In this document: one piece after another, positions 1-50,217 of the stretch
Position numbering within the stretch: the stretch's first letter is position 1
Layout of the letters: each line of letters begins with the position of its first letter
Virus record (IMG/VR): IMGVR_UViG_3300018411_000004
Strand: one strand, 5' to 3'
Length of the DNA: 53,756 nt
Origin: a virus
The notes under the pieces: model-generated
What the model saw: the letters and a program-made list of their open reading frames with translations, nothing else
Told to the model about the DNA's origin: nothing
The model's database searches: none
Program-made: the position numbers and the translations under genes

Positions 1-123
1 GAAAAGGAAGCTTAACAAGCTCCTTTCTCTTTTTGGCACGCGAAAATAACATATCATTATATGAAGAGAAGGCTTAGCTCAGAGGTAGAGCACTGGTGAA
101 AACCCAGGTGTCGTGAGGTTCGA
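1..123. repeat. Terminal direct repeat, copy 1 (identical to 53634-53756). Either circular-assembly overlap or terminal redundancy
   Basis: Read directly: both copies run gaaaaggaagcttaacaagc ... gtgtcgtgaggttcga. Confidence 0.95.
38..66 (+). promoter_or_regulatory. Phage-specific early promoter-like box ACGCGAA-N12-TTATATGAAG
   Basis: acgcgaa at 38-44 and ttatatgaag at 57-66. Same bipartite motif and spacing as about 11 other sites. Confidence 0.6.
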
Positions 124-138
124 ATCCCACACCTTTCT
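68..138 (+). tRNA. tRNA-like element, possibly a degenerate tRNA. Anticodon loop UGAAAAC, nominal anticodon AAA
   Basis: Canonical D-arm TAGCTCAGAGGTAGAGCA and T-loop GGTTCGAATCC. The acceptor GAAGGCT/ACCTTTC has one G-U pair and one C-C mismatch. The anticodon stem has only 4 clean bp (CTGG/CCAG). G sits where U33 is expected, and the T-stem has a bulged A. No encoded CCA. Confidence 0.45.
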
Positions 139-268: not shown

Positions 269-1138
269 ATGGTTAAGAATGTATTCAGAGGTAAAGAGAG
301 TCTTATTTTGACATCTCTAGGAGCAGTGGGGGTTATTGGTACGGGGATAAGTGCTGCATTGGCAACCCCTAAAGCTTTGAAACGGTTGGAACAGTTTGAG
401 GACTTCGAGTACGAAAAACAGATGCAAGAATATGAGGACAATGGTGGCGAAATGGCAGATGGTGGGTGTGCGTATATACCAATCGACTTTGAGTATAAAA
501 TGCCGGTATGGAGAAAAGCTTTAACGATTGCTCCATATTACTTACCATCTGTAATCATTGCCTCAGGCACAATCGCATGTATTATTTCCGCGCATAATCA
601 TAATTCAAAAATGCAGAAATCCTTAACAAGTGCTTATTTGGTCTTGGATGGTATGTATAAAGAATATCAAAACTCAGCAAAAGAATTGTATGGTGATGAT
701 GCCGATCATGATATTAAAAGGCAAATTGCGATTGGTCATTACGAGGATATCGTGTTATTTGAAGGTGAGACCTTGTTCCATGACGAATACTCTGGTCGAT
801 TTTTTAAGAGTACCATGGATGATGTTAAAGAAGCGGAATATCACTTGAACCGTAATTTTGCTTTACGTGGATATTGTGAGTTAAACGAGTTCTACGAGTT
901 CTTAGGCTTGGAAACAACAGATTACGGGCACACGATTGGATGGTCGCAAGAAGCAGGATTCGATTACGGATATTACTGGATCGATTTCAAACATTCTTTG
1001 GAGGTTACAGATGACGGTATTGAGTTTTATACAATATCTTACCCTTTCATGCCAACCAATGATTTTGACTACGAGTACAGAGATTATGAAGGATACTCAC
1101 GTTTTGTACCTCAAACATTGCAAGACACGCGAAAATAA
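269..1138 (+). CDS. Membrane-anchored protein, paralog family A copy 1 (function unknown)
   Basis: 289 aa, RBS aggagg. N-terminal TM helix plus ATPKA motif, and a C-terminal LNEFYEFLGL..IGW block shared with the ORFs at 2257 and 3700. Confidence 0.8.
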   Translation: MVKNVFRGKESLILTSLGAVGVIGTGISAALATPKALKRLEQFEDFEYEKQMQEYEDNGGEMADGGCAYIPIDFEYKMPVWRKALTIAPYYLPSVIIASGTIACIISAHNHNSKMQKSLTSAYLVLDGMYKEYQNSAKELYGDDADHDIKRQIAIGHYEDIVLFEGETLFHDEYSGRFFKSTMDDVKEAEYHLNRNFALRGYCELNEFYEFLGLETTDYGHTIGWSQEAGFDYGYYWIDFKHSLEVTDDGIEFYTISYPFMPTNDFDYEYRDYEGYSRFVPQTLQDTRK

Positions 1139-1155
1139 CATCTTATTATATGAAG
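1127..1155 (+). promoter_or_regulatory. Early promoter-like box ACGCGAA-N12-TTATATGAAG
   Basis: acgcgaa at 1127 and ttatatgaag at 1146. Overlaps the last codons of the upstream CDS. Confidence 0.55.
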
Positions 1156-1179
1156 AATAAATTTTAGGAGGATGTTAAA

Positions 1180-1365
1180 ATGAAATTTGGTATTGATTTA
1201 GATAATGAAAAGGTAGTAAAAGTTATTGGCGGTATCACAATGGTAGCTGGGGTTGGATTATCAATCGCAGAGAGCATATTGAGCGACAAGGCTATGGACA
1301 GAAAAATTGATAAAAGAATATCAAACAAAATGAAACACTCACATAGAGGGTATTCAAAACATTAG
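1180..1365 (+). CDS. Small single-TM early protein
   Basis: 61 aa, RBS taggagg. Its TM segment GGITMVAGVGLSIAES resembles that of the ORF at 1450. Confidence 0.7.
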   Translation: MKFGIDLDNEKVVKVIGGITMVAGVGLSIAESILSDKAMDRKIDKRISNKMKHSHRGYSKH

Positions 1366-1392
1366 GGAGCGACAAGCTCTCTTTTGTTTTTA
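1366..1392 (+). terminator. Weak intrinsic terminator
   Basis: ggagc-gaca-agctc hairpin followed by tcttttgttttt. Confidence 0.4.
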
Positions 1393-1420
1393 CGCGAATT
1401 TTACACCTCATTATATGAAG
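1392..1420 (+). promoter_or_regulatory. Early promoter-like box
   Basis: acgcgaa at 1392 and ttatatgaag at 1411. Confidence 0.55.
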
Positions 1421-1449
1421 AATATTAAAGTACATGGAGGTACGAAGAA

Positions 1450-1638
1450 ATGAACTTAAAAGGTATTAATTGGATGAAGATTGCTAGCGGAGCAACAACA
1501 GTTGTAGGTATTGGTTTAACCTTTGCAAACGACTGGTTGGCAGAAAAGAATCTTGATGCAAAAATTACTAAGAAAGTTGAAGAGAAGTTTTCTCAACTGA
1601 ACTTAAGTATTGATTCAAAAGAGGATAAAGAGTCTTAA
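1450..1638 (+). CDS. Small single-TM early protein, paralog of 1180..1365
   Basis: 62 aa, RBS catggaggtacgaagaaatg. Its stop codon lies inside the terminator hairpin. Confidence 0.7.
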   Translation: MNLKGINWMKIASGATTVVGIGLTFANDWLAEKNLDAKITKKVEEKFSQLNLSIDSKEDKES

Positions 1639-1657
1639 CAGGCTCTTTTCTCTTTTG
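1629..1657 (+). terminator. Intrinsic terminator (cassette type)
   Basis: gagtct-taac-aggctc hairpin followed by ttttctctttt. Confidence 0.6.
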
Positions 1658-1690
1658 GCTAAAAATATAAGTACGTGGAGGTACGAAGAA

Positions 1691-2257
1691 ATGAAACCAG
1701 TAGATACGGTTATTGATAATTATTGTTACGAAGACGCTAAATCAACATATGACGCATATTTAAAATTTAAAAAGAGTAAAATTAAAAAAAATATGGTAGT
1801 TGGAGTTGCGGCGTTAGTATTAGGAGGTATTGTTGGTGCTGGGATTATGAAAGGTGTAATGACTATTCAACTTAAAAATGGTTTGGAAGATTTTAAAAAG
1901 AACTTTAAGTCTGAATTAGAATCGGCTTTGGAGGCCGATCGAAAAGAATCTTTATCAAAACGATCTATCTATTCAAACCATAATGGTCTGATAAGAAAAC
2001 AAGTTATTGACCAACCATCAGATGTTATCTTTGGTAATGGACAAATAGCCTGGAGTGTTGTCAGCGACATGGAGGATCTTATAGCTCGTTATGGTAAAGT
2101 GACCGTTGGCGATTTCTACCGTATATCTGGGATCGAAGGACAATACACAGACGAATCCATGGGTTGGACAAATATAGACAACATAACGAGTCGTGAGAAC
2201 AGATGTGGTGTATCTTTAAATATACCAGAACCAATTGAATTAGAAGGAGAAAAATAA
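1691..2257 (+). CDS. Paralog family B copy 1 (function unknown), with an N-terminal TM segment
   Basis: Start chosen at the ATG after gtacgtggaggtacgaagaa. The C-terminal block YGKVTVGDFYRISG..YTD..GW...LNIPEPIEL parallels the ORF at 3025. Confidence 0.75.
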   Translation: MKPVDTVIDNYCYEDAKSTYDAYLKFKKSKIKKNMVVGVAALVLGGIVGAGIMKGVMTIQLKNGLEDFKKNFKSELESALEADRKESLSKRSIYSNHNGLIRKQVIDQPSDVIFGNGQIAWSVVSDMEDLIARYGKVTVGDFYRISGIEGQYTDESMGWTNIDNITSRENRCGVSLNIPEPIELEGEK

Positions 2258-3015
2258 TGAAAAGTAAAATGAGAACATACGCAGAAGATCATGCATCTGA
2301 AATATTAACAGGTGTAGGGATTGTTGGAATGGTTGGAAGCACGGTGTTAGCGGTAAAAGCTACACCTAAGGCTATGATGTTAATTGAGGAGAAGAAAGAT
2401 GAACTTGAGACTGAAAAACTTAACCACGTTGATCTGCTCAAAACTACTTGGAGAGCATATTTACCAGCAACCGCCGTTGGAGTGCTTTCTATTACTTGTC
2501 TGGTGGGGAGTGCTAGTGTAAATGCGAAACGTAGCGCAGCTTTAGCAGCGGCCTGCACGTTATCGGAAAATGCATTCAGAACATATGCCGAGAAAACGCT
2601 TGAGGTAGTCGGTAAGGAAAAAGAACAAGAAATCAGACAATTTGTAGGACGTCAGAAAATTAAGGATAACCCTCCACCGGATAGTACAAATCAAATCTAT
2701 ATTTGCAGTGATGGTGAGGAAGTATGTTTCGAAGGAACATCTGGGCGATATTTCAAGACGAATATGAATTCCATCAAGCAGGCTGAGAACGCTTTTAATA
2801 AACGAATGCTTGAAGAAATGACGATGTCTCTGAACGACTATTACTACGAACTTGGATTAGACAGTGTTAGTCTCGGGGATATTATCGGATGGGATTTAGA
2901 AGACGGTATGGTTGAATTTAAGGTTGGATCGATCCTTTCAGATGATGGTAAGCCATGTATATACCTGGAACCGTCAATTCAACCACGTCACGATTTCAGA
3001 GATCGATATAGATAG
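2257..3015 (+). CDS. Membrane-anchored protein, paralog family A copy 2
   Basis: 252 aa. N-terminal ILTGVGIVGMVGSTVLAVKATPKA, and C-terminal RYFKTNM...LNDYYYELGL..IIGW. Confidence 0.8.
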   Translation: MKSKMRTYAEDHASEILTGVGIVGMVGSTVLAVKATPKAMMLIEEKKDELETEKLNHVDLLKTTWRAYLPATAVGVLSITCLVGSASVNAKRSAALAAACTLSENAFRTYAEKTLEVVGKEKEQEIRQFVGRQKIKDNPPPDSTNQIYICSDGEEVCFEGTSGRYFKTNMNSIKQAENAFNKRMLEEMTMSLNDYYYELGLDSVSLGDIIGWDLEDGMVEFKVGSILSDDGKPCIYLEPSIQPRHDFRDRYR

Positions 3016-3024
3016 GAGGATAAC

Positions 3025-3669
3025 ATGGATTACACCAAATCAAACTCTCATAAGAGTAAAGCCGTTGCGAAAGAAAATGCCGAACCGAAGAAGAAAAACA
3101 TCGGCAAGGTTATAGAAGGTCAGGCTAAAATCGGTAAGAAGAGTGAACTGCAGAAAATGGCAGATGCATTCTTACCGGAAGAAGGATTGTCTGGTATTAA
3201 AGACCATATTATTATGGACGTAGTTGTGCCAACAATCAAAAAGATTATTTCGGACACTGTAGAGACTATTCTCTACGGTGCTACCGGGATGACTCCAAGA
3301 AATGGTTCGAATTCGAATAAATCAAAAACTTCATACGGAAGTTATTACGCTCGTAAAGAGGAAGAAGAAAGATATGCAAGACCTGTAGGATCTTCTAGAA
3401 TGAACGCTACTTATAGTTATGAGGAAATCATCTTAGAAACTCGTGGTCAAGCTTTAAATGTCATTGCTTGTATGGAAGATATAATCGAAACATACGAATG
3501 CGTCAGTATCGCTGATTTATACGAAATGGTCGATCTTACCGGAAATTACACAGATAATAACTATGGATGGCTTGATCTTCGAGGAGCTAGAGTTGAACAG
3601 TTAAGACGTGGTGGGTATGCTTTGAGATTACCAAAGCCTATAAAATTACCAATGGCAGTAATCGGTTAA
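3025..3669 (+). CDS. Paralog family B copy 2
   Basis: 214 aa. C-terminal YECVSIADLYEMVDLTGNYTDNNYGW...LRLPKPIKL matches the ORF at 1691. Confidence 0.8.
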   Translation: MDYTKSNSHKSKAVAKENAEPKKKNIGKVIEGQAKIGKKSELQKMADAFLPEEGLSGIKDHIIMDVVVPTIKKIISDTVETILYGATGMTPRNGSNSNKSKTSYGSYYARKEEEERYARPVGSSRMNATYSYEEIILETRGQALNVIACMEDIIETYECVSIADLYEMVDLTGNYTDNNYGWLDLRGARVEQLRRGGYALRLPKPIKLPMAVIG

Positions 3670-3699
3670 TAAAATATAAATAATAAGGAGAATATAATA

Positions 3700-4632
3700 A
3701 TGAACTTAAAAAATACAGTAAGTAAAGTAGGATTCGCATTGCAGAAAAATGCCCCAGACATCTTAATGGGTGTTGGGGTTGTAGGATTCGTAACCAGTTC
3801 GGTTTTAACCGGTCGAGCAAGTACGAAACTAAATACGCATCTGGAGGAAGTAAAGGAAAATTTACAGAATGTTGACAAGGTTCTCGAGGGAGCTAAAAAC
3901 GGTACTGTCGACTACACAGAAGAAGATGCTAAGAAAGATCGGGCGCTTATTTATGTACAAGGAGCTTTAAAGATTGGCAAGTTATATGCCCCAGCTGTAT
4001 CAGTAGGCGTGTTCTCAATCGGTTGCGTGTTGAAATCTCATGACATCATGAAAAACCGTATGTTATCTTTAAGCGCTGCCTATGCGACATTAGCTGTAGG
4101 ATTCAAAGCATACCAAGAACGAGTGGCTGCAAGATATGGTGAGGAAGCCGAACGAGAAATTCGATATAACATCAGCACTGTTAGAACCACCGAAACGGTT
4201 GTTGGTAAAAAGGGTAAGGAAACTGAAATCGTAACTGACACAAAAGTTATTGACGCTGAAAACATGCACAGCCCATACGCAAAGATCTTTGACGAAACAA
4301 ATCAGTATTGGGAGCGAGATCCTGAATTCAACTTATCGTTCCTGACAGCTCAGCAAAGATTTGCAAATGACAAGCTTCATGCTCGTGGTCATTTATATTT
4401 GAATGAGGTATATGATATGTTAGGATTCCCTCGAACCAGAGCAGGTCAAGTAGTAGGTTGGATCTGGGATAAGACGAATGAAAGTATTGGCGATAACTAT
4501 ATTGACTTTGGAATCTTCAATGTTAATAGTAAAAAAGCTGCAGATTTTGTAAATGGGTATGAACCAGCAATTGTGTTAGATTTTAATGTCGATGGCAATA
4601 TTCTGGATCGACAATTCGAAACTATGGGTTAA
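3700..4632 (+). CDS. Membrane-anchored protein, paralog family A copy 3
   Basis: 310 aa. N-terminal ILMGVGVVGFVTSSVLTGRAS, and C-terminal LNEVYDMLGF..VVGW. Confidence 0.8.
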   Translation: MNLKNTVSKVGFALQKNAPDILMGVGVVGFVTSSVLTGRASTKLNTHLEEVKENLQNVDKVLEGAKNGTVDYTEEDAKKDRALIYVQGALKIGKLYAPAVSVGVFSIGCVLKSHDIMKNRMLSLSAAYATLAVGFKAYQERVAARYGEEAEREIRYNISTVRTTETVVGKKGKETEIVTDTKVIDAENMHSPYAKIFDETNQYWERDPEFNLSFLTAQQRFANDKLHARGHLYLNEVYDMLGFPRTRAGQVVGWIWDKTNESIGDNYIDFGIFNVNSKKAADFVNGYEPAIVLDFNVDGNILDRQFETMG

Positions 4633-4644
4633 GGAGGAATATCA

Positions 4645-5373
4645 ATGAATGCACCATATGCAATTTTGGCTTTCGTAACGGGCGCTCTCTTAGGGGTATC
4701 CGTTACGGGAACTATATTAAAAATAAAGTATGCTAAAGATCTGGAAAGAGAGGTTGATTCTGTAATCGAATCATTCTCAGCTGCGCCAAGAGTTATATTC
4801 AAGGATAAGAAAGATGAAGTTGAGGAACACGTCGAATCTTCAACCGTATCTGGAGATGCTCCGAAATTATCACTTGTAAATGATGAGGGTACCGATATAG
4901 CTCAAGGATTTTACTACAGCCCAGAAAACGATGCGGATAAGTTCAAACCGCAGGTTAAAAAATACTACGACGTTCATGGAAATGAATTGGTAGTAAATGA
5001 TGACGGTGTTTATGAAGAAGAATATGAAGAGGAGCTTCCTGAACTAACTGAGGACGACGCGTTTGCTTACGAAGAACCATATTCCATAAGTCCTGATGAA
5101 GTTGAGCCGCTTATTGAAGAAGGATATTCGGTTCTTAACTGGACTGTATATCAAGGATGCGATGATAGTAAACTGGTTGCAGACGAAAATGATGAGTTGG
5201 TAGATCACGCCGAGATTGAACGGACTATCGGCGTTGGGGTTGAGTGTCTAGGCGAATATGAGCCGGACATAGCGCATATATGCAACGACCGCTTACGTTG
5301 CGTTATTGAATTAACGGAAGACTTGCGTAACTATTCCGATATAATGAAAGCGATGTCGTTCATAAATCAATAG
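4645..5373 (+). CDS. Hypothetical protein with an N-terminal TM segment and a very acidic body
   Basis: 242 aa, RBS aaggagg. Confidence 0.75.
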   Translation: MNAPYAILAFVTGALLGVSVTGTILKIKYAKDLEREVDSVIESFSAAPRVIFKDKKDEVEEHVESSTVSGDAPKLSLVNDEGTDIAQGFYYSPENDADKFKPQVKKYYDVHGNELVVNDDGVYEEEYEEELPELTEDDAFAYEEPYSISPDEVEPLIEEGYSVLNWTVYQGCDDSKLVADENDELVDHAEIERTIGVGVECLGEYEPDIAHICNDRLRCVIELTEDLRNYSDIMKAMSFINQ

Positions 5374-5927
5374 TGATTCGAGAAGAATATTACAAATGGT
5401 TATGTCACTTCGTTTTTACCTCACGTAGAAGAAATTACAAACGTCTGATTAAATATCTGCATAGCGTAGAGTTTACATATTTCATACCATTCGATGAAAA
5501 CCGGTACGAAGATGGTATTGAATTACGCAGACGATTTGCAATCGAATCCGGTTATATGCAAGATCATTTAATAAATATCATGGGTGACGATCCGTGTAGC
5601 GTATTAGAAATGATGATAGCATTGGCGATTCGATGTGAGGAAAATATAATGGAGGACATCGAAATTGGCGATAGAACGGGTCAATGGTTTTGGGCCATGA
5701 TCGATAATGCGGGGTTCGGTTCGCTGACTGATATTAATTTCAATTCGAGAGAAGCTGATTTTATAACAAATAGAATACTTAATCGTGAGTACGGTCCTTG
5801 TGGTGAAGGTGGGTTATTTTACATAAAACACAATTGTCATGCGGACTTACGTACGGTTGAACTTTGGTATCAACTTAATTGGTACTTAGCATCATATATT
5901 AAGGAGATGAACGAATATGAATACTAA
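5373..5927 (+). CDS. Hypothetical protein
   Basis: 184 aa, TAGTG start/stop overlap with the upstream gene. Confidence 0.7.
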   Translation: MIREEYYKWLCHFVFTSRRRNYKRLIKYLHSVEFTYFIPFDENRYEDGIELRRRFAIESGYMQDHLINIMGDDPCSVLEMMIALAIRCEENIMEDIEIGDRTGQWFWAMIDNAGFGSLTDINFNSREADFITNRILNREYGPCGEGGLFYIKHNCHADLRTVELWYQLNWYLASYIKEMNEYEY

Positions 5928-6096
5928 ATTAGCTAAGACGGTTGTTGTAATCGAGTTAGATGATAAATTTATAAGAGCTTACACCAGAGCTCGCAGACGA
6001 CGAGGTTTTAATAAGCTCTTAAGATGGGGCGCGGTTCTGGTGTTATCGTATTATATCTACGAGTTTTTAGAAGGACGGTATAAGAAAGGGATGTAG
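5917..6096 (+). CDS. Small hypothetical protein (59 aa) with a C-terminal TM segment
   Basis: Below the ORF-track cutoff. aaggag lies 10 nt upstream of the ATG, and the ORF fills the gap before the replicase gene. Confidence 0.45.
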   Translation: MNTKLAKTVVVIELDDKFIRAYTRARRRRGFNKLLRWGAVLVLSYYIYEFLEGRYKKGM

Positions 6097-6099
6097 GAT

Positions 6100-9000
6100 G
6101 TGCTAGACTTTTTAATGATTGCAACCAGAAGCACTAAGAAAGGTGCTATTGAAGTATATCCTAAATTCTTAATAAAGAAGAGTAAGGATCTTATGATTCG
6201 AGGTGGGGATTTCTATGCTGTGTGGGACGAGGCTCAAAATCGATGGTCTTTAGATGAACACGCAGCCTTACGAATGATCGACAAGGAATTGGTAACATAC
6301 ACCGAAGAACGATGCGATAAATTTGATGGTGAAGTTCGAGTGCTACATTTATGGGATTCATCTTCAGGCATGATCGATAACTGGCATAAATATTGTCAGA
6401 AACAAATGCGAGATTCGTTCCACCCACTTGATGAAAAACTGGTATTCGCAAATGAGGAGACAACCAAAGAGGATTATGTTACACGAACTTTAACATATCC
6501 TTTAGAGTCTGGGGATATCTCGGCATACGAACGTATGATGTCAGTGTTATATTCTCCGGATGAACGTATGAAAATTGAGTGGGCGATCGGATCGATCGTT
6601 ACTGGCGAATCCGTTAATATACAGAAGTTCTTAGTATTCTACGGATCTGCCGGTACAGGTAAATCGACAGTTCTTAATTTGATTCAGAAGTTATTTGATG
6701 GATATTACACGGTCTTCGATGCTAAAGCATTGGGATCTACGAGTAACTCATTTGCTCTGGAAGCATTTAAGACGAACCCATTAGTAGCGATTCAGCACGA
6801 CGGGGATCTTTCGAGAATTGCAGATAATACTCGACTTAACAGCGTGGTTTCACATGAGTTAATGACTGTAAATGAGAAGTTCAAAGCTACATACGCTAGT
6901 AAATTCAAATGTTTCTTATTTATGGGTACGAACAAACCGGTAAAGATCACAGACGCTAAGTCGGGACTTATCCGAAGACTTATTGACGTTTCTCCCACCG
7001 GGGATAAATTACCGTCAGTAGAATATAAAGCAGTAGTACATCAACTTGATTTCGAATTGGGTGCCATCGCATATCATTGCGCTGAAGTTTACAAAAACAA
7101 CAAATCGAAATATGATGATTACATCCCAACTACAATGCTGGGCGCTTCGAATGATTTCTATAACTATATTGAAGACGCTTTTTATGTGTTTAAGGATGAA
7201 GACGGTGTAACTCTTAAAACTGCTTGGGAACGATATAAAACATATTGTACGGAGGCACATGTTCAGTATCCATTTTCACAAAGAGCGTTTAAAGAAGAAC
7301 TGAAGAATTACTTTAAAGAATATAAAGAACGTCATGTTTTAGCGGATGGAACGAGGGTGAGAAGTTATTTTGAGGGCTTTCGTTATGATAAGTTTGAAAG
7401 AGTTCAAGAGGAGGATCACGACGAATGTCCTGAGAATTTAAAGACTATTATATTTAATGGTAAAGAATCTGAATTTGACAAACAGTGCAAATCTTGTCCA
7501 GCACAGTACGCATCCGAGCAAGGATCGCCTGTCATGAAGTGGGCAAATGTGAAAACTAAGCTATCTAAAATAGACACATCCAAGTTGCATTATGTAAAAG
7601 TTCCAGAGAATCATATTGTGATCGATTTCGATTTGACGGAGAATGGCGAGAAGTCGCTGGAACTGAATTTAAAAGAGGCTAGTAAATGGCCAGAGACATA
7701 CGCTGAGGTAAGTAAAAGTGGTAAAGGTATCCATCTGCATTATATTTATTCAGGTGATGCTTCCAAACTGTCTCGAGTATATGACGAACATATAGAAATA
7801 AAAGTGTTTGTCGGTAACGCTTCGCTACGAAGGAAACTAACGAAGTTTAACGATAAACCTATAAACACTATAAGCTCTGGCCTACCCTTGAAAGGAGACA
7901 AGGTGATTAATTTCGATTCGGTAAAAAATGAAAAGGCGATACGTACGTTAATTCATAAAAATATTTATAAGGAATACCACCCTGGCACCAAACCAAGTAT
8001 CGAGTTTATACACAAGATACTCGAGGATGCTTATGAAAGTGGAGTACCTTATGATGTTCGAGATATGGAAAATGTTGTGTTTGCATTTGCAGCGAGTAGC
8101 ACCAACCATGCTGAATATTGTATGGATTTGGTTGAGACTATGAAGTTTAAATCGGAGGATATTTCCGAAAATGGCGTTAACGAGGATGTTTCGGCGCTGG
8201 TGTTTTATGATGTTGAGGTCTTTCCAAATTTATTCATTGTAAACTATAAGGCGGAAGGAGAAAATAAACCTGTTGTACGAATGATCAACCCAACGTCAAA
8301 AGATATTGAAGGATTACTTCGATACAAACTTGTAGGATTCAACTGTAGGCGTTACGATAATCATATTCTTTACGGACGTCTTATCGGGTATACGAACGAA
8401 CAACTGTATGAGTTATCAATGCGGATTATCAATAATAAACCAAATGCATATTTCGGTGAGGCTTGGAATATATCTTATACGGATGTATACGACTTCTCAT
8501 CTGAAAAGAAATCTTTGAAGAAGTTTGAAATCGAACTGGGTATTCACCATCAGGAACTTGGACTGCCTTGGGATCAACCTGTGCCTGAAGAACTTTGGGT
8601 TAAGGTCGCTGAGTATTGTGATAACGATATTATTGCGACCGAAGCAGTGTTCCATGCAAGACAATCGGACTGGTTAGCACGACAGATACTGGCAGATATT
8701 GCTGGAAAATCTGTTAACACGACTACGAACTCCCTATCGACTCGAATTATATTTGGAGATAACAAGACTCCTCAGGATGAGTTTAATTATCGTGATATGG
8801 GTAAAGTGGATGATAAATGCTCAACGATATCCATGACTGATAAAGGCGTGTTGTTTGACAACTTTGCGGACGATGAGCATTGTTTATTTGACGAGTTTAA
8901 TCGACCGGTGTTCCCTGGCTATAAATATGAAGCTGGTAAATCGCATTATCGTGGAGAAGTTGTTGGAGAAGGCGGTTACGTATATTCTGAACCGGGCATG

Positions 9001-10125
9001 TATGGAAACGTTGCATTACTTGATATTGCATCAATGCATCCGACAAGCGCAATTCAGGAAAACTTATTCGGTGATGTATATACTAAGAAGTTTAAAGAAA
9101 TTGTAGATGCTCGACTCGCGATAAAACATAAGGATCTTGATTCTGCTAGACAAATGCTGGGTGGGGCTTTAGCTAAATATCTTGACGATGAAAGTCTACT
9201 CAAGGATTTATCGACAGCGTTGAAGATCGTTATCAACTCTGTATACGGTTTAACGTCAGCAAGTTTCGAAAACCCATTCAGAGATCCAAGAAATATCGAT
9301 AATATCGTAGCCAAACGTGGAGCGTTATTTATGGTAAACCTGAAACATGCAGTTCAAGCACGAGGTTTTACCGTTGCTCATATTAAGACCGACTCGATTA
9401 AGATACCAGATGCAACTCCTGAGATTATTCAGTTTGTTACGGATTATGGTGAGATGTACGGTTACACCTTTGAACACGAGGCTACATACGATCGCTTATG
9501 TCTGGTTAATGATGCTGTTTATATCGCTCGATATTCTGGAGAAGGTGTAAAGTGGACTGCTACGGGTACTCAATTCGCGGTGCCGTATGTATTCAAGAAG
9601 TTATTTACTGGCGATGATATCGAATTTAAAGATCTCTGTGAAACAAAATCCGTAGCATCCTCCATATATTTGGATATGAACGAGTCGCTTCCCGATGTTA
9701 AAGAGTATGAAAAAGAGCGGGATAAGATATGGAAGAAACTTCTTTCCGATGAACCGATGGATAAATCTGTTGTCGACGATCTAGAACAACGATATTTGGA
9801 ACTTGAAGAACTGATCGCTCCGGGACACAATTATATATTTGTAGGAAAGATAGGTCTGTTCTGCCCAATCAAATCTGGACATGGCGGTGGTATACTTTTA
9901 AGAGAGAATAACACTGCTAAAAACGGTAAGGTTGGATATGCATCTGTAACTGGCACTAAAGGATATCGTTGGTTAGAAGCTGAAATGGTGGAGAACTTGG
10001 GTAAATATGATTCTATAGATAGATCATATTATGACAACTTGGTAAATGATGCGGTCGACAGCATTGCTACATATGGTGATATTGAATGGTTTGTATCAGA
10101 AGAAACATATTTAAAGAAAGATTAA
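6100..10125 (+). CDS. Replicase fusion: SF3 (D5/P4-like) helicase, AEP primase-like domain and family-B DNA polymerase
   Basis: 1341 aa. Helicase: Walker A GSAGTGKST (aa 182-190), Walker B VAIQHDGD, FMGTNKP. AEP: IVIDFDL and SKSGKGIHLHY (aa 506-548). PolB: ExoI FYDVEVF, ExoIII YCDNDIIAT, motif A LLDIASMHPTS, motif B KIVINSVYG, motif C HIKTDS. Confidence 0.85.
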   Translation: MLDFLMIATRSTKKGAIEVYPKFLIKKSKDLMIRGGDFYAVWDEAQNRWSLDEHAALRMIDKELVTYTEERCDKFDGEVRVLHLWDSSSGMIDNWHKYCQKQMRDSFHPLDEKLVFANEETTKEDYVTRTLTYPLESGDISAYERMMSVLYSPDERMKIEWAIGSIVTGESVNIQKFLVFYGSAGTGKSTVLNLIQKLFDGYYTVFDAKALGSTSNSFALEAFKTNPLVAIQHDGDLSRIADNTRLNSVVSHELMTVNEKFKATYASKFKCFLFMGTNKPVKITDAKSGLIRRLIDVSPTGDKLPSVEYKAVVHQLDFELGAIAYHCAEVYKNNKSKYDDYIPTTMLGASNDFYNYIEDAFYVFKDEDGVTLKTAWERYKTYCTEAHVQYPFSQRAFKEELKNYFKEYKERHVLADGTRVRSYFEGFRYDKFERVQEEDHDECPENLKTIIFNGKESEFDKQCKSCPAQYASEQGSPVMKWANVKTKLSKIDTSKLHYVKVPENHIVIDFDLTENGEKSLELNLKEASKWPETYAEVSKSGKGIHLHYIYSGDASKLSRVYDEHIEIKVFVGNASLRRKLTKFNDKPINTISSGLPLKGDKVINFDSVKNEKAIRTLIHKNIYKEYHPGTKPSIEFIHKILEDAYESGVPYDVRDMENVVFAFAASSTNHAEYCMDLVETMKFKSEDISENGVNEDVSALVFYDVEVFPNLFIVNYKAEGENKPVVRMINPTSKDIEGLLRYKLVGFNCRRYDNHILYGRLIGYTNEQLYELSMRIINNKPNAYFGEAWNISYTDVYDFSSEKKSLKKFEIELGIHHQELGLPWDQPVPEELWVKVAEYCDNDIIATEAVFHARQSDWLARQILADIAGKSVNTTTNSLSTRIIFGDNKTPQDEFNYRDMGKVDDKCSTISMTDKGVLFDNFADDEHCLFDEFNRPVFPGYKYEAGKSHYRGEVVGEGGYVYSEPGMYGNVALLDIASMHPTSAIQENLFGDVYTKKFKEIVDARLAIKHKDLDSARQMLGGALAKYLDDESLLKDLSTALKIVINSVYGLTSASFENPFRDPRNIDNIVAKRGALFMVNLKHAVQARGFTVAHIKTDSIKIPDATPEIIQFVTDYGEMYGYTFEHEATYDRLCLVNDAVYIARYSGEGVKWTATGTQFAVPYVFKKLFTGDDIEFKDLCETKSVASSIYLDMNESLPDVKEYEKERDKIWKKLLSDEPMDKSVVDDLEQRYLELEELIAPGHNYIFVGKIGLFCPIKSGHGGGILLRENNTAKNGKVGYASVTGTKGYRWLEAEMVENLGKYDSIDRSYYDNLVNDAVDSIATYGDIEWFVSEETYLKKD

Positions 10126-19636: not shown

Positions 19637-20171
19637 GGGTAGTCACGCTTTTCTTGGAGCGAGTAAATATCACTGGATAAATTATGACGAAAATAAAGTT
19701 GCAGATTCATATTTAAGATTCTTGGCAAGTCGAAAAGGAACTGAGCTTCATGACTTTGCGGCTCGATGTATTTCTTTGAAACAGAAGTTACCAAAATCCA
19801 AGAAGACTTTAAATGCTTATGTAAATGACGCTATAGGTTTTCATATGATTCCAGAACAAACCTTATATTTCTCAGACAATTGTTTCGGAACAGCTGACGC
19901 TATAACCTTTGCTAATAATACTTTGAGAATTCATGATCTGAAAACCGGAGTTATTCCAGGACATATGGAACAGCTTGAAGTTTATACCGCGTTATTCTGT
20001 TTGGAGTATGTGATCGATCCAAAAGATATTAATATCGAATTACGTATTTACCAGAATGATGATATTCTGATTCATAATCCTGATGAGGATGATATTCGTT
20101 ATGTGATTGATAAAATGGTTACGTTTGATAAAATCATTACCAAAATAAAGATTGAGGAGGGTATGGCTTAA
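19608..20171 (+). CDS. PD-(D/E)XK-family nuclease-like protein
   Basis: 187 aa, RBS gaggagg. TADAITF...IHDLKTG motif. Confidence 0.5.
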   Translation: MIFNKHFNLEGSHAFLGASKYHWINYDENKVADSYLRFLASRKGTELHDFAARCISLKQKLPKSKKTLNAYVNDAIGFHMIPEQTLYFSDNCFGTADAITFANNTLRIHDLKTGVIPGHMEQLEVYTALFCLEYVIDPKDINIELRIYQNDDILIHNPDEDDIRYVIDKMVTFDKIITKIKIEEGMA

Positions 20172-22957
20172 TGTATTATTTCGATGATGAGTTAGAACAT
20201 GTTGGAACTAAGAAACATTCAGGCCGATATCCTTGGGGGTCTGGTAAGAATCCATATCAACATAGTGGAGACTTTCTTAGTCGAGTTGAAGAACTTTCTA
20301 AGAATGGTATTTCTCAAAAAGATTTAGCTGATATTTTAGGTATGTCGACAACCGATTTAAGAATGCAGTTGAGAGTTGCCAATCATGAGCGACGCGAATT
20401 ACAAAGAGATCGAGCTAAATCTTTGAGAGCTGACGGTAAGAGTTTACAAGAGATATCTCAGATTATGGGTTTTAAAAATGACTCATCTGTAAGATCTTTA
20501 TTGAACGATAATACCGCAGCTAATAAGAATAAAGCTAAAGTAACTGCTGAGATTCTCAAGAAAGAACTCGAGAAGAAGGGTGACATGCTTGAAGTTGGTG
20601 CAGGTGTTGAAAGAGTTCTTGGTGTATCTAAATTAACTCTTAAAGAAGCGTTATTTACCCTCGAGACGGAAGGTTATAATGTTTATAAAGTTGGAATACC
20701 AGATATGTCTAAACCTGGTAGGCAGTCCAACACAGCTATATTAGCTAAGAGTCATGTTCCGTATGCCGATGCTTATGCGAAGATGGAAACCGTTCAGTCT
20801 GTTGGTGACTATCATTCCAAAGATGGTGGTGACACCTTTAGTCAAAAGAAATATCCAGCTAGTGTTGATTCTAAAAGAATTCATGTTAGATATGGAGATC
20901 AAGGTGGCGCTGCTAAAGATGGAACTATTGAGTTAAGGCGAGGTGTTAAAGATTTAGATCTTGGAACATCTAGTTATGCTCAGGTTCGTATATTAGTTGA
21001 CGGCACTCATTACCTTAAGGGTATGGCTTTATATTCCGATGATATGCCGGATGGCGTTGATATCGTATTTAACACAAATAAGAAGTCTGGAACGCCTAAG
21101 CTAGATACTTTGAAAGAAGTTAAATCTGATAAGTCGAACCCTTTTGGAGCGTATATTAAGGCTCAAGGTCAGAGTACCTATATTGACAAAGATGGTAAAG
21201 AAAAACTTTCAGCTATCAACAAGTTGAAAGAAGAAGGTGACTGGGATAAGATGTCTGAAAACTTATCTTCTCAGTTCTTATCTAAACAACCAATGCAGCT
21301 AATCAATAAACAGTTGAATCTAACATATGCCGATGCTCGAGCATATTTAGATGAGTTGAACTCTTTAACCAATCCGACTATTAAGAAAAAACTCTTATTA
21401 GATTTTGCTGGTAACTGTGAAAGTAAAGCTGTTCATCTTAAAGCGGCTGCACTACCAAGACAGAAAACTCAGGTTATATTACCCTTGACCGGTATATCTG
21501 ATAAGGAAATCTACGCGCCAAACTTTAAAGATGGTGAAAAGGTATCTCTTGTTCGATATCCTCATGGTGGTATATTTGAGATCCCGCAATTAACAGTTAA
21601 CAATAAGAATGCTCAAGGCAGAAGAGTTCTTGGAACCAACGTTAAAGACGCTGTTGGTATACACCCAAACGTTGCTGAAAGATTATCTGGAGCCGACTTC
21701 GATGGCGATCAAGTAATTGTTATTCCAGAATCATCAAAGGTTCATGTTAAATCTAAAGCTCGATTATCTGGGCTTATAGACTTTGATGGAAAGACAGCAT
21801 TCCCACCCAAGACTGAAGACACTTTATATGTGAAGAAAGGTCCTGATGATAAGACTCCACTGTACAACGGTAAGAAAATTTTATCTAAAGTCATGACTAA
21901 AGAGAACACTCAAAGAGAAATGGGTATCGTATCAAATCTTATTACTGATATGACTTTAAGGGGCGCTTCTGATGAGAAGTTAACGAGAGCTATCAAGCAT
22001 AGTATGGTCGTTATTGATGCTGAGAAACATAAATTGGATTATAAAGAATCCGAAAAGGTTAATCGTATCAAAGAACTTAAGAAAGAATATCAGTTACAGT
22101 ATGACGAAAATGGTAAGGAAAAATATGGTGCGTCTACGTTACTCTCTCGTAGAAAGCAAACCGTTGACGTTGATGAGCGTAAAGGTAGCGGCGTTATTGA
22201 TCCAGATACAGGTGTTGTGACATATAAGACTTCTGGTAGAGAATATAAAGAAATTGTTAAAGATAAAGCTACAGGTAAAAGCGTCGAGACTGGAAATATG
22301 ATCAAAGCTAAGTCTAAAGTTAAATTGGTATTAGCAGTTGATGATGTTAAGTCTTTATCTTCTGGAACTTTAGAAGAAGATGCATATGCTGACTATGCAA
22401 ATAAGATGAAAGCTTTAGCGAATGAAGCTAGGAAATTATATAAGTCTACAGGTAACTTAACATATTCTAAAGAAGCCCGTATAAAATATGACAATGAAGT
22501 TCAAGCGTTAAATGCTAGACTTAATATCGCTGCAATGAATGCTCCCAAAGAAAGACAGGCTAGGATAATTGCTAATGGAGTCCTTAAAGCTAAGAAGCAG
22601 GAATATCCTGAGCTGGTCAAAGATAAGAAAGAATCTAAGAAGATATATCAGCAGGCTATGGAGGATGCACGAGCAGCTGTCGGATTGAATAGCAAGGCAG
22701 ATAAGATAGTCTTCTCAGATAAAGAATGGGAAGCCATACAAGCTGGCGCTATCACTGATAATAAGTTAGCTCAGTTACTACGTTATGCTGATGAGGATAA
22801 GTTTAAGGAGAGAGCACTACCCAGAGCTACCACTGAACTATCCCCCGCTTCTATTAGTCGTATCAAAGCTATGCAACAAAGTGGTTACACTAATGAACAG
22901 ATAGCTTCACGATTAGGTAAGTCTGTATCGACAGTGTTTAAGTATCTTAATCAATGA
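20171..22957 (+). CDS. Single-polypeptide two-barrel RNA polymerase (YonO/RdRP-like, beta-prime-type catalytic loop) with HTH modules and an N-terminal leader motif
   Basis: 928 aa. VSLVRYPHGGIFEIP...AVGIHPNVAERLSGADFDGDQVIVIPE aligns with bacterial beta-prime NRAPTLH...[25 protein letters not shown]. DFDGD lies at nt 21695-21709. HTH-like segments near aa 45-110 and at the C-terminus (GYTNEQIASRLGKSVSTVFKYL). Confidence 0.65.
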   Translation: MYYFDDELEHVGTKKHSGRYPWGSGKNPYQHSGDFLSRVEELSKNGISQKDLADILGMSTTDLRMQLRVANHERRELQRDRAKSLRADGKSLQEISQIMGFKNDSSVRSLLNDNTAANKNKAKVTAEILKKELEKKGDMLEVGAGVERVLGVSKLTLKEALFTLETEGYNVYKVGIPDMSKPGRQSNTAILAKSHVPYADAYAKMETVQSVGDYHSKDGGDTFSQKKYPASVDSKRIHVRYGDQGGAAKDGTIELRRGVKDLDLGTSSYAQVRILVDGTHYLKGMALYSDDMPDGVDIVFNTNKKSGTPKLDTLKEVKSDKSNPFGAYIKAQGQSTYIDKDGKEKLSAINKLKEEGDWDKMSENLSSQFLSKQPMQLINKQLNLTYADARAYLDELNSLTNPTIKKKLLLDFAGNCESKAVHLKAAALPRQKTQVILPLTGISDKEIYAPNFKDGEKVSLVRYPHGGIFEIPQLTVNNKNAQGRRVLGTNVKDAVGIHPNVAERLSGADFDGDQVIVIPESSKVHVKSKARLSGLIDFDGKTAFPPKTEDTLYVKKGPDDKTPLYNGKKILSKVMTKENTQREMGIVSNLITDMTLRGASDEKLTRAIKHSMVVIDAEKHKLDYKESEKVNRIKELKKEYQLQYDENGKEKYGASTLLSRRKQTVDVDERKGSGVIDPDTGVVTYKTSGREYKEIVKDKATGKSVETGNMIKAKSKVKLVLAVDDVKSLSSGTLEEDAYADYANKMKALANEARKLYKSTGNLTYSKEARIKYDNEVQALNARLNIAAMNAPKERQARIIANGVLKAKKQEYPELVKDKKESKKIYQQAMEDARAAVGLNSKADKIVFSDKEWEAIQAGAITDNKLAQLLRYADEDKFKERALPRATTELSPASISRIKAMQQSGYTNEQIASRLGKSVSTVFKYLNQ

Positions 22958-45747: not shown

Positions 45748-47790
45748 ATGGCCGATATTACAAACGCTATAAATGATTTTAAGACGGCGGCAAATGGCGA
45801 AGCTGTTAGAGACAGTTTCGTCGCCACCATCAACCTAGTGAATGATGATAACGTAAACATCATTGGAAAACTTAACACCCTCGAACCAAAACTTGATAAC
45901 TTAGACGAAAGTGTTTCTAGCGCTCAAACGAGCGCTAATAATGCTGCTGGTTCTGCGACAATCGCTACCACACAAGCTGGGATATCCACCACGAAAGCTT
46001 CTGAATCTTCCGCCAGTGCGGCGGCATCACAAACAGCTAAGAATGATTCGGTTACGGCAAAGAACGCTTCTCAACTAGCTGAAACAAATGCTAAAGCTTC
46101 TGAAAATGCTGCAAAGTTATCCGAAACTAATTCCAAAGCTTCTGAAAATGCTGCAAAGTTATCCGAAACTAATTCCAAAGCGTCGGAGACAAATTCTGTC
46201 ATAAAAGCTGCGGAGGCTCTGGCTTCTAAAACCGCCGCAGAAACAGCTAAAACACAAACTCTAGAATATAAAGACGCCGTCTTAGCAGCGGTTGGCGGAT
46301 CAACTAACTTAGCAGAAATTATTGAAGCTCGGAAAACAAAAGCAACACTAGGAGAAAAGATTTCCGATATTGATTCGCAATTGGCAGATATTCGGGACAG
46401 GGATAAAACGGTAAAAGAATTTGGAGTCCGTATATACGATGGTCAATCCTCAGGAACTTTAGAGCGAATCCTCGACAGCATCGGTATGGTTGCAAATGCA
46501 GCGGTAGGCACTGGAAGTGTCGTCAACGATTTTGACACTGCAATTGGTTGGCCACGCAGACGGACTGTGAACGGTTATTATGACGAGACTGCTAAGAAAA
46601 TGATTGTTACAGCAAGTAAAGGTGAACCGGGATTTAAGACGGACGGTACAAATGGTAATGTTTGGGTTGAGACTGAAAAGTTCTACGTAAAACGAGTGGT
46701 TGGGGCTGGATATGTTGACGAAAGTATTTGTAAGGAGCAACTACCTGGATATACGTTATTTGATAAATTCAGAGGGTTAGACGGTGAAGAATTAGATTTT
46801 GGATATTCCGGTGCCTATGAAGTCGGAACGGATGGTAGCGGTAATCCTATTTCATGGTCAGGCGTAAATCCAACCAATATTTCTCACGATTCAGGATTAA
46901 CTTTAGCAAGAAAACTCGGTACTCGCTACCACATGGACGACACGACCGATATTGAACTCGTCCGTTTAATGATGATGATCGAATTTGCGACGCTTAATTC
47001 TCAAACCGCAATTGGTCAAGGAGTTTGTAGCCTTAATTACAGTAATGCAAGCTCAGTTGCCACCATAGCAGAAACATCCGTCAATCGTGTAATCCTTGCG
47101 AACGCTCAAGCTAATTTATTTGTAGTCGGTCAAACGATCATAATCGGAACTACGAACAATAATACAAATGTTGCAAACAACCGAAAAGTGTTATCGATCG
47201 ACGTTTATGATGCGAGCAACAAAGCATTAACTTTCGATGGAGCAGCTGTAAACATCGCTGTCGGCAACTTCGTAGGCTCTCGAATAACTCGTACAGGCGA
47301 AACGGACACGATAACTGCAAGCTCTGGAACATTAGTAAACGATGGTAAACACGCAGTAATATATCGTGGTACTGAAAATCCTTTTGGAAATGGCTGGAAG
47401 GTTGCATCTGATGTTGTCTTTAAAAATGAAGATTCTATAATGTATATATGCAGAGATCCACGAAAAAGAGTCGTTGGAATGTCGGCCTTAACAGCTGATT
47501 ATAAACCGATTGGATACACTTTAGCAACATCCGAAGGATATGTAACAGCTTTAGGCTACGATCCTAACTACCCAAGCGCAAGATTTGCAACCGCAGTTGG
47601 AGGATCTTCAAGTACATACTTTGGAGATTATTTCTACCGCAACACAGTCGCAACTATCGGATTAAGAGAAGTTTTAAACGGCGGTTATTTCAATGATGGC
47701 GCGGGCGATGGCTGTTCTTATTGGCTCTTGTTCCACGCTCTGTCGTCGTCGTACTTCACTCTTGCCGGTCGGCTTTCTGTGACTGGATAA
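45748..47790 (+). CDS. Tail fibre / receptor-binding protein, the DGR target (C-terminal variable region)
   Basis: 680 aa. The N-terminus is a Ser/Ala/Asn-rich coiled region with a 42-bp tandem repeat. The C-terminal 34 codons match the downstream template repeat except at template adenines. Confidence 0.85.
   Translation: MADITNAINDFKTAANGEAVRDSFVATINLVNDDNVNIIGKLNTLEPKLDNLDESVSSAQTSANNAAGSATIATTQAGISTTKASESSASAAASQTAKNDSVTAKNASQLAETNAKASENAAKLSETNSKASENAAKLSETNSKASETNSVIKAAEALASKTAAETAKTQTLEYKDAVLAAVGGSTNLAEIIEARKTKATLGEKISDIDSQLADIRDRDKTVKEFGVRIYDGQSSGTLERILDSIGMVANAAVGTGSVVNDFDTAIGWPRRRTVNGYYDETAKKMIVTASKGEPGFKTDGTNGNVWVETEKFYVKRVVGAGYVDESICKEQLPGYTLFDKFRGLDGEELDFGYSGAYEVGTDGSGNPISWSGVNPTNISHDSGLTLARKLGTRYHMDDTTDIELVRLMMMIEFATLNSQTAIGQGVCSLNYSNASSVATIAETSVNRVILANAQANLFVVGQTIIIGTTNNNTNVANNRKVLSIDVYDASNKALTFDGAAVNIAVGNFVGSRITRTGETDTITASSGTLVNDGKHAVIYRGTENPFGNGWKVASDVVFKNEDSIMYICRDPRKRVVGMSALTADYKPIGYTLATSEGYVTALGYDPNYPSARFATAVGGSSSTYFGDYFYRNTVATIGLREVLNGGYFNDGAGDGCSYWLLFHALSSSYFTLAGRLSVTG
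46096..46179 (+). repeat. Perfect 42-bp tandem repeat x2 (ASENAAKLSETNSK)
   Basis: gcttctgaaaatgctgcaaagttatccgaaactaattccaaa at 46096-46137 and 46138-46179. Confidence 0.9.
47678..47778 (+). repeat. DGR variable region (VR)
   Basis: 101 bp aligned by hand to 47824-47924. There are 21 differences, and 20 of them fall at template adenines. Confidence 0.85.
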
Positions 47791-47823
47791 ACTTCAACAA
47801 AATATTTTAGGGACTCGAAGTCT

Positions 47824-47924
47824 ACGGCGGTAATTTCAATGATGGCACGAACGATGGATGTTCTAATTGGAACTTGAACAACGCTCTGTCGAATTCGAAC
47901 TTCACTATTGCCGGTCAGAATTCT
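47824..47924 (+). repeat. DGR template region (TR)
   Basis: Non-coding copy. In the VR frame it reads NGGNFNDGTNDGCSNWNLNNALSNSNFTIAGQNS, rich in AAY codons. Confidence 0.85.
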
Positions 47925-48038
47925 TTTAAAATGCAACACGACTTCGAGAGTCCTTACCTCTAGGTAAAAATTAAGCGATAAAACGGGGCTAGTAATGAGA
48001 GTGAAACTCCTGTAGCTGAAAGAAAGGTAACAACGTTA

Positions 48039-50010: not shown

Positions 50011-50217
50011 ATGAGTGAAAAAACTAAAACATGGTTAAAAGCAGCTGGTGTCAGAGCAGTTAAAACAGTAGCACAAACAGCTATTGCTACAATCGGTACC
50101 ACGGCAGTATTAACTGGAGTTGACTGGGCTATTGTGGCTTCGTCTGCAGCCGTTGCTGGTATCGTATCCTTATTAACATCTTTGGCTGGCCTACCAGAAG
50201 TTAAAGAGGTCGAATAA
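50011..50217 (+). CDS. Holin
   Basis: 68 aa with two TM segments (VRAVKTVAQTAIATIG...IVASSAAVAGIVSLLTSLAGLPE). Immediately upstream of the endolysin. Confidence 0.7.
   Translation: MSEKTKTWLKAAGVRAVKTVAQTAIATIGTTAVLTGVDWAIVASSAAVAGIVSLLTSLAGLPEVKEVE

Follow-up and report, generated by a model that had tools for sequence, protein, structure and literature searches.

The p16.7 and p1 proteins of Bacillus phage phi29 are membrane-anchored organizers of phage DNA replication; the domain of p16.7 is an all-helical DNA-binding dimer, and phi29 primes its replication with a terminal protein. Phage membrane proteins of another kind, represented by the lactococcal Sie2009 and the Streptococcus Ltp, are superinfection-exclusion proteins of prophages that are patchily distributed, lie in the lysogeny module and face outwards. 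Here we analyzed seven genes at positions 269 to 4632 of the virus record IMGVR_UViG_3300018411_000004, a stretch of 53,756 nucleotides (nt) that we refer to, at its full length, as the window. These genes encode three copies of one protein family (A1, A2 and A3), two copies of another (B1 and B2) and two small proteins (S1 and S2). Both families are already known, as DUF6353 and phrog_4079, and are uncharacterized; the genes in the window are further members of them, and a literature search gave no paper mentioning DUF6353. What appears to be new is the fixed orthology of the A paralogs, the conserved pairing of B with A3, and a domain common to DUF6353 and phrog_4079. The DUF6353 records appear to be without the three fixed sub-lineages, the obligate pairing of A3 with phrog_4079 and the common C-terminal domain.

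The window belongs to the supercluster of Actinobacteria and Firmicutes phages described by Koert et al. (bioRxiv 10.1101/842583), having the same primase/polymerase and the same genome plan. Its closest member is the Faecalibacterium phage FP_oengus, with a polymerase identity of 57%, and the identity to proteins annotated as 'DNA primase/polymerase' in actinobacteriophages is 45-51%. The conserved blocks reported for the supercluster are structural and late replication genes, and the membrane proteins considered here go unmentioned (Koert et al., bioRxiv 10.1101/842583). Positions 1-123 of the window are identical to positions 53634-53756, which identifies it as a circular assembly and a complete genome of ~53.6 kb, the size given in an initial annotation of this DNA. 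The gene order of that annotation, A-S-S-B-A-B-A, likewise agrees with the table of open reading frames (ORFs), in which all seven genes are on the + strand at the following coordinates (aa, amino acids; HMM, hidden Markov model; TM, transmembrane):

269..1138, + strand: A1, DUF6353 protein of 289 aa (Pfam E 1.4e-53; C-terminal-domain HMM E 3.7e-30)
1180..1365, + strand: S1, single-TM protein of 61 aa, phrog_19711 (E 3.1e-6)
1450..1638, + strand: S2, paralog of S1 with 62 aa, phrog_19711 (E 5.2e-10)
1691..2257, + strand: B1, divergent and genome-specific extra copy of family B, 188 aa (phrog_4079 E 3.9e-15; family-B HMM E 6e-39; C-terminal-domain HMM E 1.3e-25)
2257..3015, + strand: A2, DUF6353 protein of 252 aa, the most conserved A copy (Pfam E 1.1e-69)
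3025..3669, + strand: B2, canonical family-B protein of 214 aa (phrog_4079 E 1.2e-54), also examined by AlphaFold2 and hydropathy
3700..4632, + strand: A3, DUF6353 protein of 310 aa (Pfam E 1.5e-72; phrog_19999 E 5.8e-17)

Families A and B and their C-terminal domains

From the letters of the sequence, the initial annotation had grouped the ORFs at 269, 2257 and 3700 into one family and those at 1691 and 3025 into another, with B directly upstream of A. Two real paralogous families in this arrangement were recovered by our analysis. All three A proteins exceed the curated gathering threshold of 25 bits for DUF6353 (PF19880) and cover most of its 253-position model, by which membership was judged (A1, 182 bits, model positions 9-252; A2, 235 bits, 2-252; A3, 245 bits, 2-251). 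They also match the phrog_2152 profile, and are full-length members with the same layout of two TM segments followed by a C-terminal domain. In pairwise blastp comparisons with composition correction, the three copies matched one another with E values of 3e-27, 9e-17 and 4e-19, at ~25% identity across almost their entire length. The similarity can therefore not be put down to composition, an explanation that had been named as a possible weakness of the grouping. A match to a characterized housekeeping protein, the other such weakness, was found for neither family.

Hydropathy analysis placed two Gly-rich TM helices in each A protein; those of A1 are at aa 13-31 and 87-105, and its C-terminal alpha/beta domain is encoded at nt ~761-1072. 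The AlphaFold2 model of A2, obtained from a 46-sequence alignment with a mean predicted local distance difference test score (pLDDT) of 83.7, consists of a long antiparallel helical hairpin (aa 13-50 and 57-118) that holds both TM segments, a further helix at aa 120-137, and a compact alpha/beta domain at aa 155-240 (nt ~2707-3003). For the C-terminal domain of A3 (nt ~4291-4620) there is a further match, to phrog_19999, whose members are soluble, stand-alone domain proteins. Across the A family the N-terminal flank is net positive (a mean of 3.3 K+R versus 0.6 D+E) and the loop between the TM helices is charge-balanced. These charges favor an N-in/C-in topology, which would place the C-terminal domain on the cytoplasmic side.

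The two B proteins both belong to phrog_4079 and match each other with a blastp E value of 2e-12 across the C-terminal 75 residues. B2 matches phrog_4079 over its whole length (E 1e-54; positions 2-213 of the 214 in the profile) and B1 via its C-terminal domain (positions 137-213 only), and nearly all of B1 is covered by the family-B HMM built here (positions 16-201). The N-terminus of B2 contains a strongly conserved motif, …SNSHKSK… (NSHKSK), followed by a basic stretch; next comes an amphipathic helix that is no true TM helix, and then a linker of low complexity that leads into an alpha/beta domain at the C-terminus (nt ~3409-3648). The AlphaFold2 model of B2 is confident only for aa 130-205 (pLDDT ~90). 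In B1 a true TM helix, predicted by hydropathy at aa 31-49, takes the place of the amphipathic helix, and the B-type C-terminal domain is at nt ~2012-2245. B1 is an orphan at the sequence level, with no homolog but itself among 5.8 billion proteins. The B family profile found 8,684 cluster representatives (50% identity) at E <=1e-3, and 3,756 at E <=1e-30. There is a ribosome-binding site, GGAGGT, 7 nt upstream of the B1 ATG at 1691, and the alternative frame from TTG 1610 reads through a terminator hairpin; ATG 1691, the start used in the initial annotation, is therefore the likely one. The stop codon of B1 overlaps the A2 start codon by 1 nt. Family B has no Pfam entry, and a Pfam scan of all 43 B members at E values up to 5 gave no recurrent weak match. 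A MerR-like helix-turn-helix (HTH) identity for the B C-terminal domain was considered and rejected, as the AlphaFold2 model has coil at the would-be recognition helix; the 'MerR-like' label in Microbacterium phage Count was traced to a different gene, of 55 aa, that lies between B and A.

The C-terminal domains of the two families contain similar motifs (SLNDFYYELGL…GW in A and SVADLYDLVG…YGW in B). A first, shallow comparison of A and B profiles aligned these 27 motif columns, weakly (probability 4-14%). When deeper profiles were used, comprising 293 A domains of all three ortholog types and 198 B domains including 50%-identity cluster representatives, hhalign gave a probability of 72.6% (P 3.2e-5) over 53-68 columns, in an alignment that spans helix-strand-helix-strand-strand-strand. 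Searches with domain HMMs point the same way: among 16,497 ORFs of related loci, 22 of the 25 best non-B matches of the B-domain HMM were A proteins, aligned at the motif, and in the reciprocal search with the A-domain HMM, B came next after small soluble stand-alone domain ORFs only. The AlphaFold2 models of A2 and B2 have an identical order of secondary-structure elements in the C-terminal domain. In a Foldseek search of the B2 model against BFVD, B homologs lead, and matches 9-10 and some lower ones have A-like lengths (265-302 aa; E 6e-4 to 2e-3) with family unconfirmed. Taken together, these results make it very probable that an alpha/beta module of ~85 residues at the C-termini of A and B is homologous.

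This domain also occurs by itself. Soluble stand-alone copies of 100-170 aa lie upstream of the module in many related prophages, FP_oengus has the domain also as a 90-aa ORF, and the stand-alone copies have no signal peptides. Over the size range of 90-170 aa, such copies are of A3 type or B type, contain no TM segment, and are situated upstream of or within the module in relatives; examples, by related locus, are:

L006, 4770-5150: stand-alone domain copy
L030, 3225-3620: stand-alone domain copy
L059, 6665-6988: stand-alone domain copy
L046, 4266-4679: stand-alone domain copy
L002, 9364-9630: stand-alone domain copy

S1 and S2, which the initial annotation had called paralogous, match each other with a blastp E value of 2e-5 and both belong to phrog_19711. 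Hydropathy predicted one TM helix in S1; S2 remained below the threshold yet has an equivalent Gly-rich hydrophobic stretch. In L085, the closest relative, their orthologs are 65% (S1) and 62% (S2) identical. S1 has its own promoter-like motif (1137-1156) and terminator (1364-1382), as does S2 (1402-1421 and 1627-1648), and each therefore constitutes its own promoter-gene-terminator cassette. That the S proteins are copies of the first A TM segment was rejected (hhalign probability 0.5%).

Distribution and history of the module

Immediately downstream of A3 the window encodes the following genes, which we include in the comparison of gene order:

4645..5373, + strand: X, 242 aa, phrog_4695, with an N-terminal TM helix at aa 7-25 and a very acidic cytoplasmic part
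5373..5927, + strand: Y, soluble protein of 184 aa, phrog_4678, just upstream of the polymerase
5917..6096, + strand: Z, small ORF between Y and the polymerase
6100..10125, + strand: fusion of primase/helicase and family B DNA polymerase (Pol), 1341 aa, with NCBIfam primase_Cterm and Pol II matches

We searched 50,697 phage records by tblastn with A2, B2 and the polymerase, obtaining 245, 250 and 253 records, respectively, which are nearly one set. The hosts were alike for the three queries: Arthrobacter (95 records), Gordonia (55), Streptomyces (53-54), Lactococcus (8-13), Curtobacterium (7), Microbacterium (4), Rhodococcus (4) and Faecalibacterium (2). The co-occurrence of A and B that the initial annotation suggested looking for is therefore found together with the polymerase, and across two host phyla. 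The Lactococcus carriers are 1706-like phages, and the lineage as a whole is a large siphovirus group that comprises the 1706-like and Oengus-like phages and the actinophages of clusters AM, AU, AW, DJ, CC, EL and BI.

Gene order was assessed by scanning 80 prophage loci from Clostridia genomes with the HMMs built here. The order was A-S-A-B-A-X-Y-Pol in 34 of these loci and A-A-B-A-X-Y-Pol in 20 (54 of 80 together); the other 26 are mostly shorter or have no detectable X, and a few have an extra B or a split polymerase. The polymerase is present in every prophage locus with sufficient downstream sequence, and the order there is fixed. In Crocheter, Phaby, Count and the Bifidobacterium phage BitterVaud1 we observed A…B-(small genes)-A-(X)-Y-Pol. 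The core order was seen in phages of Gordonia, Arthrobacter, Microbacterium, Bifidobacterium and Faecalibacterium, and a shorter form, A…B-A-(X)-Y-Pol, is repeated in ~250 sequenced phages, with Arthrobacter, Gordonia, Streptomyces, Lactococcus and Faecalibacterium as hosts. X is conserved downstream of A3, and Y precedes the polymerase in all relatives where it was detected, with a small ORF (Z in the window) that may intervene; Y was not found in the most divergent relative, the oral Caudovirus D_HF5_2C (L088), which bears the polymerase and keeps the B-(small)-A pair. B lies just upstream of an A3-type copy in all loci examined, and the adjacency of B1 and A2 was seen only in this genome. 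The gap between B2 and A3 in the window is 31 nt and holds no gene; in actinophage relatives, B and the A3-type gene are separated by one or two tiny genes (for example, 6606-6773 in L086, which is Count gp70, and 36261-36573 in L003), one of which is annotated as MerR-like HTH. In BitterVaud1 (L087, 14310-18949) the primase/polymerase is encoded as two ORFs (query residues 2-963 and 966-1338) separated by a 213-aa ORF, possibly a mobile insertion.

The A copies are positional orthologs. In 69 of the 69 loci that have three A genes, the first, second and third A are most similar to A1, A2 and A3 of the window, respectively. In Crocheter and Phaby, the two actinophages tested in this way, the A gene further upstream resembles A2 and the one downstream resembles A3, and Gordonia phage Crocheter gp58 is 40% identical to A3. 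As A2-like and A3-like copies were already present in actinophages, the split between A2 and A3 predates the spread of the lineage over two phyla; A1 is an older offshoot of the A2 type in the Firmicutes branch. The A paralogy is thus ancient and fixed, with each copy individually retained. The initial annotation had instead described the region as diverged copies of one two-gene unit, and here our results differ from it: the layout in relatives is three A genes and one B gene, B2-A3 is the only conserved B-A pair, and B1 is an orphan.

When the window was compared with L085, identities were 61% for A1, 83% for A2, 76% for B2, 68% for A3, 56% for X and 77% for Y, and for the replication genes 84% (Pol), 76% (single-stranded DNA-binding protein, SSB) and 83% (helicase). 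Whole-gene ratios of nonsynonymous to synonymous substitution rates (dN/dS) were 0.04-0.16 where computable, values that are indicative only because dS was saturated. A2 equals Pol in conservation, and A1 and X diverge faster. The canonical A genes and B2 appear to be under purifying selection, and the canonical genes seem to behave as core genes rather than as arms-race genes.

Variability was observed elsewhere. The slot between A1 and A2 contains one to four small genes in relatives; in L085 the orthologs of S1 and S2 are accompanied there by a small acidic protein and by a truncated, B-like remnant of 67 aa (B HMM E 0.003). Independent duplications of B occurred in FP_oengus and at least one prophage (L069). 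If anything, the turnover expected of an accessory hot spot is found only in this slot, in the S proteins and B1.

Operon structure and genome context

From 1691 to 10125 the genes follow each other with stop/start overlaps or gaps of <=31 nt throughout. A 20-nt motif, AACATATCATTATATGAAGA, occurs at 8 distinct sites versus 0.01 expected, all of them intergenic:

48, 1137, 1402, 12461, 51621, 52482, 52782 and 53406, + strand: sites of AACATATCATTATATGAAGA

The motif overlaps sigma-70-like -35/-10 matches, and each site is upstream of a small early gene or a transfer RNA (tRNA), often right after a terminator-like hairpin. These sites are probably early promoters. There is no copy of the motif between 1421 and 12461, a region that includes the stretch from B1 to the polymerase. 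The lack of an internal motif and the tight packing from B1 onwards therefore indicate that B1 to the polymerase is a single operon that includes replication genes. The module stands at the front of this replication operon, in which the polymerase is the anchor gene; downstream of the polymerase are the SSB and helicase genes (Pfam Phage_ssDNA_bind and Helicase_C), and ~6 kb is taken up by proteins with membrane or membrane-proximal segments. Given the circularity, the lysis cassette and the small early genes at the right end of the window are directly upstream of A1; in this cassette an r1t-type holin (PF16945, 50011-50217) abuts a ChW/Amidase_3 endolysin (50217-51197).

Several other features of the window were recorded. 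A tRNA at 68-138 (+ strand), which begins directly after the promoter-like motif at 48-67, was called by Rfam with 44 bits, exceeding the gathering score, and ARAGORN makes no call there; relative to the model its anticodon arm has a 2-nt deletion, so that the stem has 4 bp and the loop is UGAAAAC, with a GAA/Phe-like reading. Downstream, at ~176-245, a hairpin resembles a tRNA anticodon arm, again with the loop UGAAAAC, plus a T-arm, with a T-run at its end, and may be a terminator or an att-like remnant. A diversity-generating retroelement occupies 45748-49130. Its variable repeat (47678-47778) is at the 3′ end of the gene for a 680-aa tail-fiber-like protein, its template repeat (47824-47924) is 81% identical to the variable repeat, with 18 of the 19 differences at template adenines, and its reverse transcriptase gene is at 48039-49130 (RVT_1, E 1e-10). 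Finally, a 928-aa ORF at 20171-22957 has C-terminal HTH domains as its sole Pfam matches. Koert et al. (bioRxiv 10.1101/842583) proposed an 'HTH domain-containing', YonO-like putative RNA polymerase as a signature of the lineage, and by position and size the 928-aa ORF is probably this protein.

Possible functions and comparison with known systems

We propose, with low confidence (about 0.35), that the module encodes a hetero-oligomeric, cytoplasm-facing membrane platform for a phage-intrinsic process, most plausibly the anchoring of replication. The A proteins would insert as N-in/C-in helical hairpins whose Gly-rich TM helices pack tightly; together with the S proteins, X and peripherally bound B, they would build a hetero-oligomeric assembly on the cytoplasmic face of the membrane, from which the common C-terminal domains would reach into the cytoplasm as binding modules. 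Such a platform would serve an essential process of the phage itself, the likeliest being the membrane tethering or organization of the phage genome and of its primase-PolB replisome, and the extra B1 and S copies in the A1-A2 slot may be lineage-specific accessories to it. Our reasons for this proposal are several. The module is retained universally in a lineage whose hosts differ greatly in their envelopes (mycolata, Streptomyces, Clostridia and Lactococcus), and the three individually retained A types suggest distinct subunits of one assembly. The invariant B-A3 pair, the small-residue-rich TM helices and the co-packing with replication genes are further grounds for a platform. The cytoplasmic orientation is suggested by the A flank charges, the lack of a TM helix in B2, and the lack of signal peptides in the stand-alone domains. 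As a still more tentative suggestion, DUF6353, phrog_4079, S and X would constitute a new essential inner-membrane complex that couples the replisome or genome to the membrane by means of the ~85-residue module, which would be employed in membrane-anchored, peripheral and soluble versions, and that is a hallmark of the primase-PolB supercluster.

Several observations weigh against a replication platform. No DNA-binding or replisome-binding motif was found in any protein of the module. PDB sequence searches with A and B, as single sequences and as profiles, gave no match, and the best Foldseek match of the A2 and B2 AlphaFold2 models in the PDB had a nonsignificant E value of 0.47. The charge pattern of B1 predicts an N-in/C-out topology, in conflict with a cytoplasmic C-terminal domain. 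In D_HF5_2C the B-A pair is ~8 kb from the polymerase, with a lysin gene between them. Lastly, co-occurrence with the polymerase is equally explained by vertical inheritance within one lineage. Searches for other leads returned no named NCBIfam family for the module proteins and nothing useful in the literature on toxicity screens in these phage clusters; weak Foldseek matches to ESCRT-III/PspA hairpins, TolQ/ExbB and winged-helix domains were scattered, and we discarded them as not trustworthy.

That no link to DNA was found would suit effectors of host takeover. Independently of phage replication, these would act early in infection on some conserved membrane function of the host, such as division, secretion, the handling of lipids or wall precursors, or the energy state. 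We regard this as possible and, on balance, unlikely. Within the genome the genes are placed in the early/replication half, immediately behind the small early genes and their repeated promoter-like motifs, and ~8 proteins with membrane segments are packed into 6 kb, as one might expect of such effectors. However, host-takeover genes are usually patchy and host-specific, whereas this module is carried by essentially all members of a lineage with hosts in two phyla, and A2 evolves as slowly as the polymerase. Moreover, the predictions place most of the protein in the cytoplasm, with a short outer loop.

The initial annotation suggested superinfection exclusion, anti-defense or another arms-race role for a locus growing by B-A duplication. 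While the two families on which it rested are real, the arms-race role and the duplicated unit were not supported, except in the variable A1-A2 slot: that slot, with its one to four small genes, the orphan B1, the truncated B remnant of L085 and the independent B duplications, does look like a place of turnover. The three A genes and B2, by contrast, are fixed positional orthologs, universal in the lineage and under apparent purifying selection (with dS saturated). A patchy distribution, as expected of an exclusion or anti-defense locus, was not observed, with A and B found in 245-250 of ~253 records, essentially the same set that holds the polymerase. A2 is 83% identical to its L085 ortholog, versus 84% for Pol. 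PADLOC defense and anti-defense models gave no match better than E 0.02. The genes are in the replication operon rather than beside an integrase or repressor, and the lineage includes actinophage clusters that have no integrase in the annotated records examined. We therefore consider an arms-race locus improbable.

We likewise give little credence to a role in genome entry, by which early membrane proteins would complete or secure DNA internalization after a first segment has entered, as the pre-early proteins of T5 are needed for the second step of DNA transfer. An inferred membrane location with cytoplasmic domains would be suitable, as would core genes near strong, repeated early promoter-like motifs, yet the operon from B1 to Pol is itself without the early motif, and in actinophage relatives the genes are in mid-genome (31-37 kb of a linear 57 kb) and not at a likely first-entering end; the circular assembly of the window, for its part, gives neither genome ends nor the direction of entry. 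A role as lysis accessories (holin, antiholin or lysis-timing proteins) is very improbable: two Gly-rich TM helices do recall holins, and the first A gene of actinophage relatives is a few kb downstream of the holin, but a separate holin and endolysin are present at 50011-51197 and in relatives, the A proteins are 250-310 aa long with a folded cytoplasmic domain, and their genes are co-packed with replication genes in a different operon from the endolysin.

Whichever process is served, these families are among the few genes common to the whole lineage, from soil actinophages to dairy and human-gut Firmicutes phages, and the fixed orthology, the B-A3 pairing and the common domain turn what were duplicated unknowns into a defined, testable module. 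Tractable carriers are available among the SEA-PHAGES Gordonia and Arthrobacter phages and the lactococcal 1706-like phages.

Compared with the exclusion proteins Sie2009 and Ltp, the module is similar in being phage-encoded with an N-terminal membrane anchor, and differs in that it occurs throughout its lineage, belongs to the replication operon and has a predicted cytoplasmic orientation. The likeness to p16.7 and p1 of phi29 is one of analogy only: in both cases early membrane-anchored proteins are encoded with replication genes and have a cytoplasmic domain after the TM segment. There is no similarity of sequence or fold (PDB, Foldseek), the domain of the module being alpha/beta, and the polymerase is here fused to a primase/helicase, in contrast to the terminal-protein priming of phi29. 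If the proposed replication membrane platform is correct, the module would be a second, unrelated example of the role played by p16.7 and p1.

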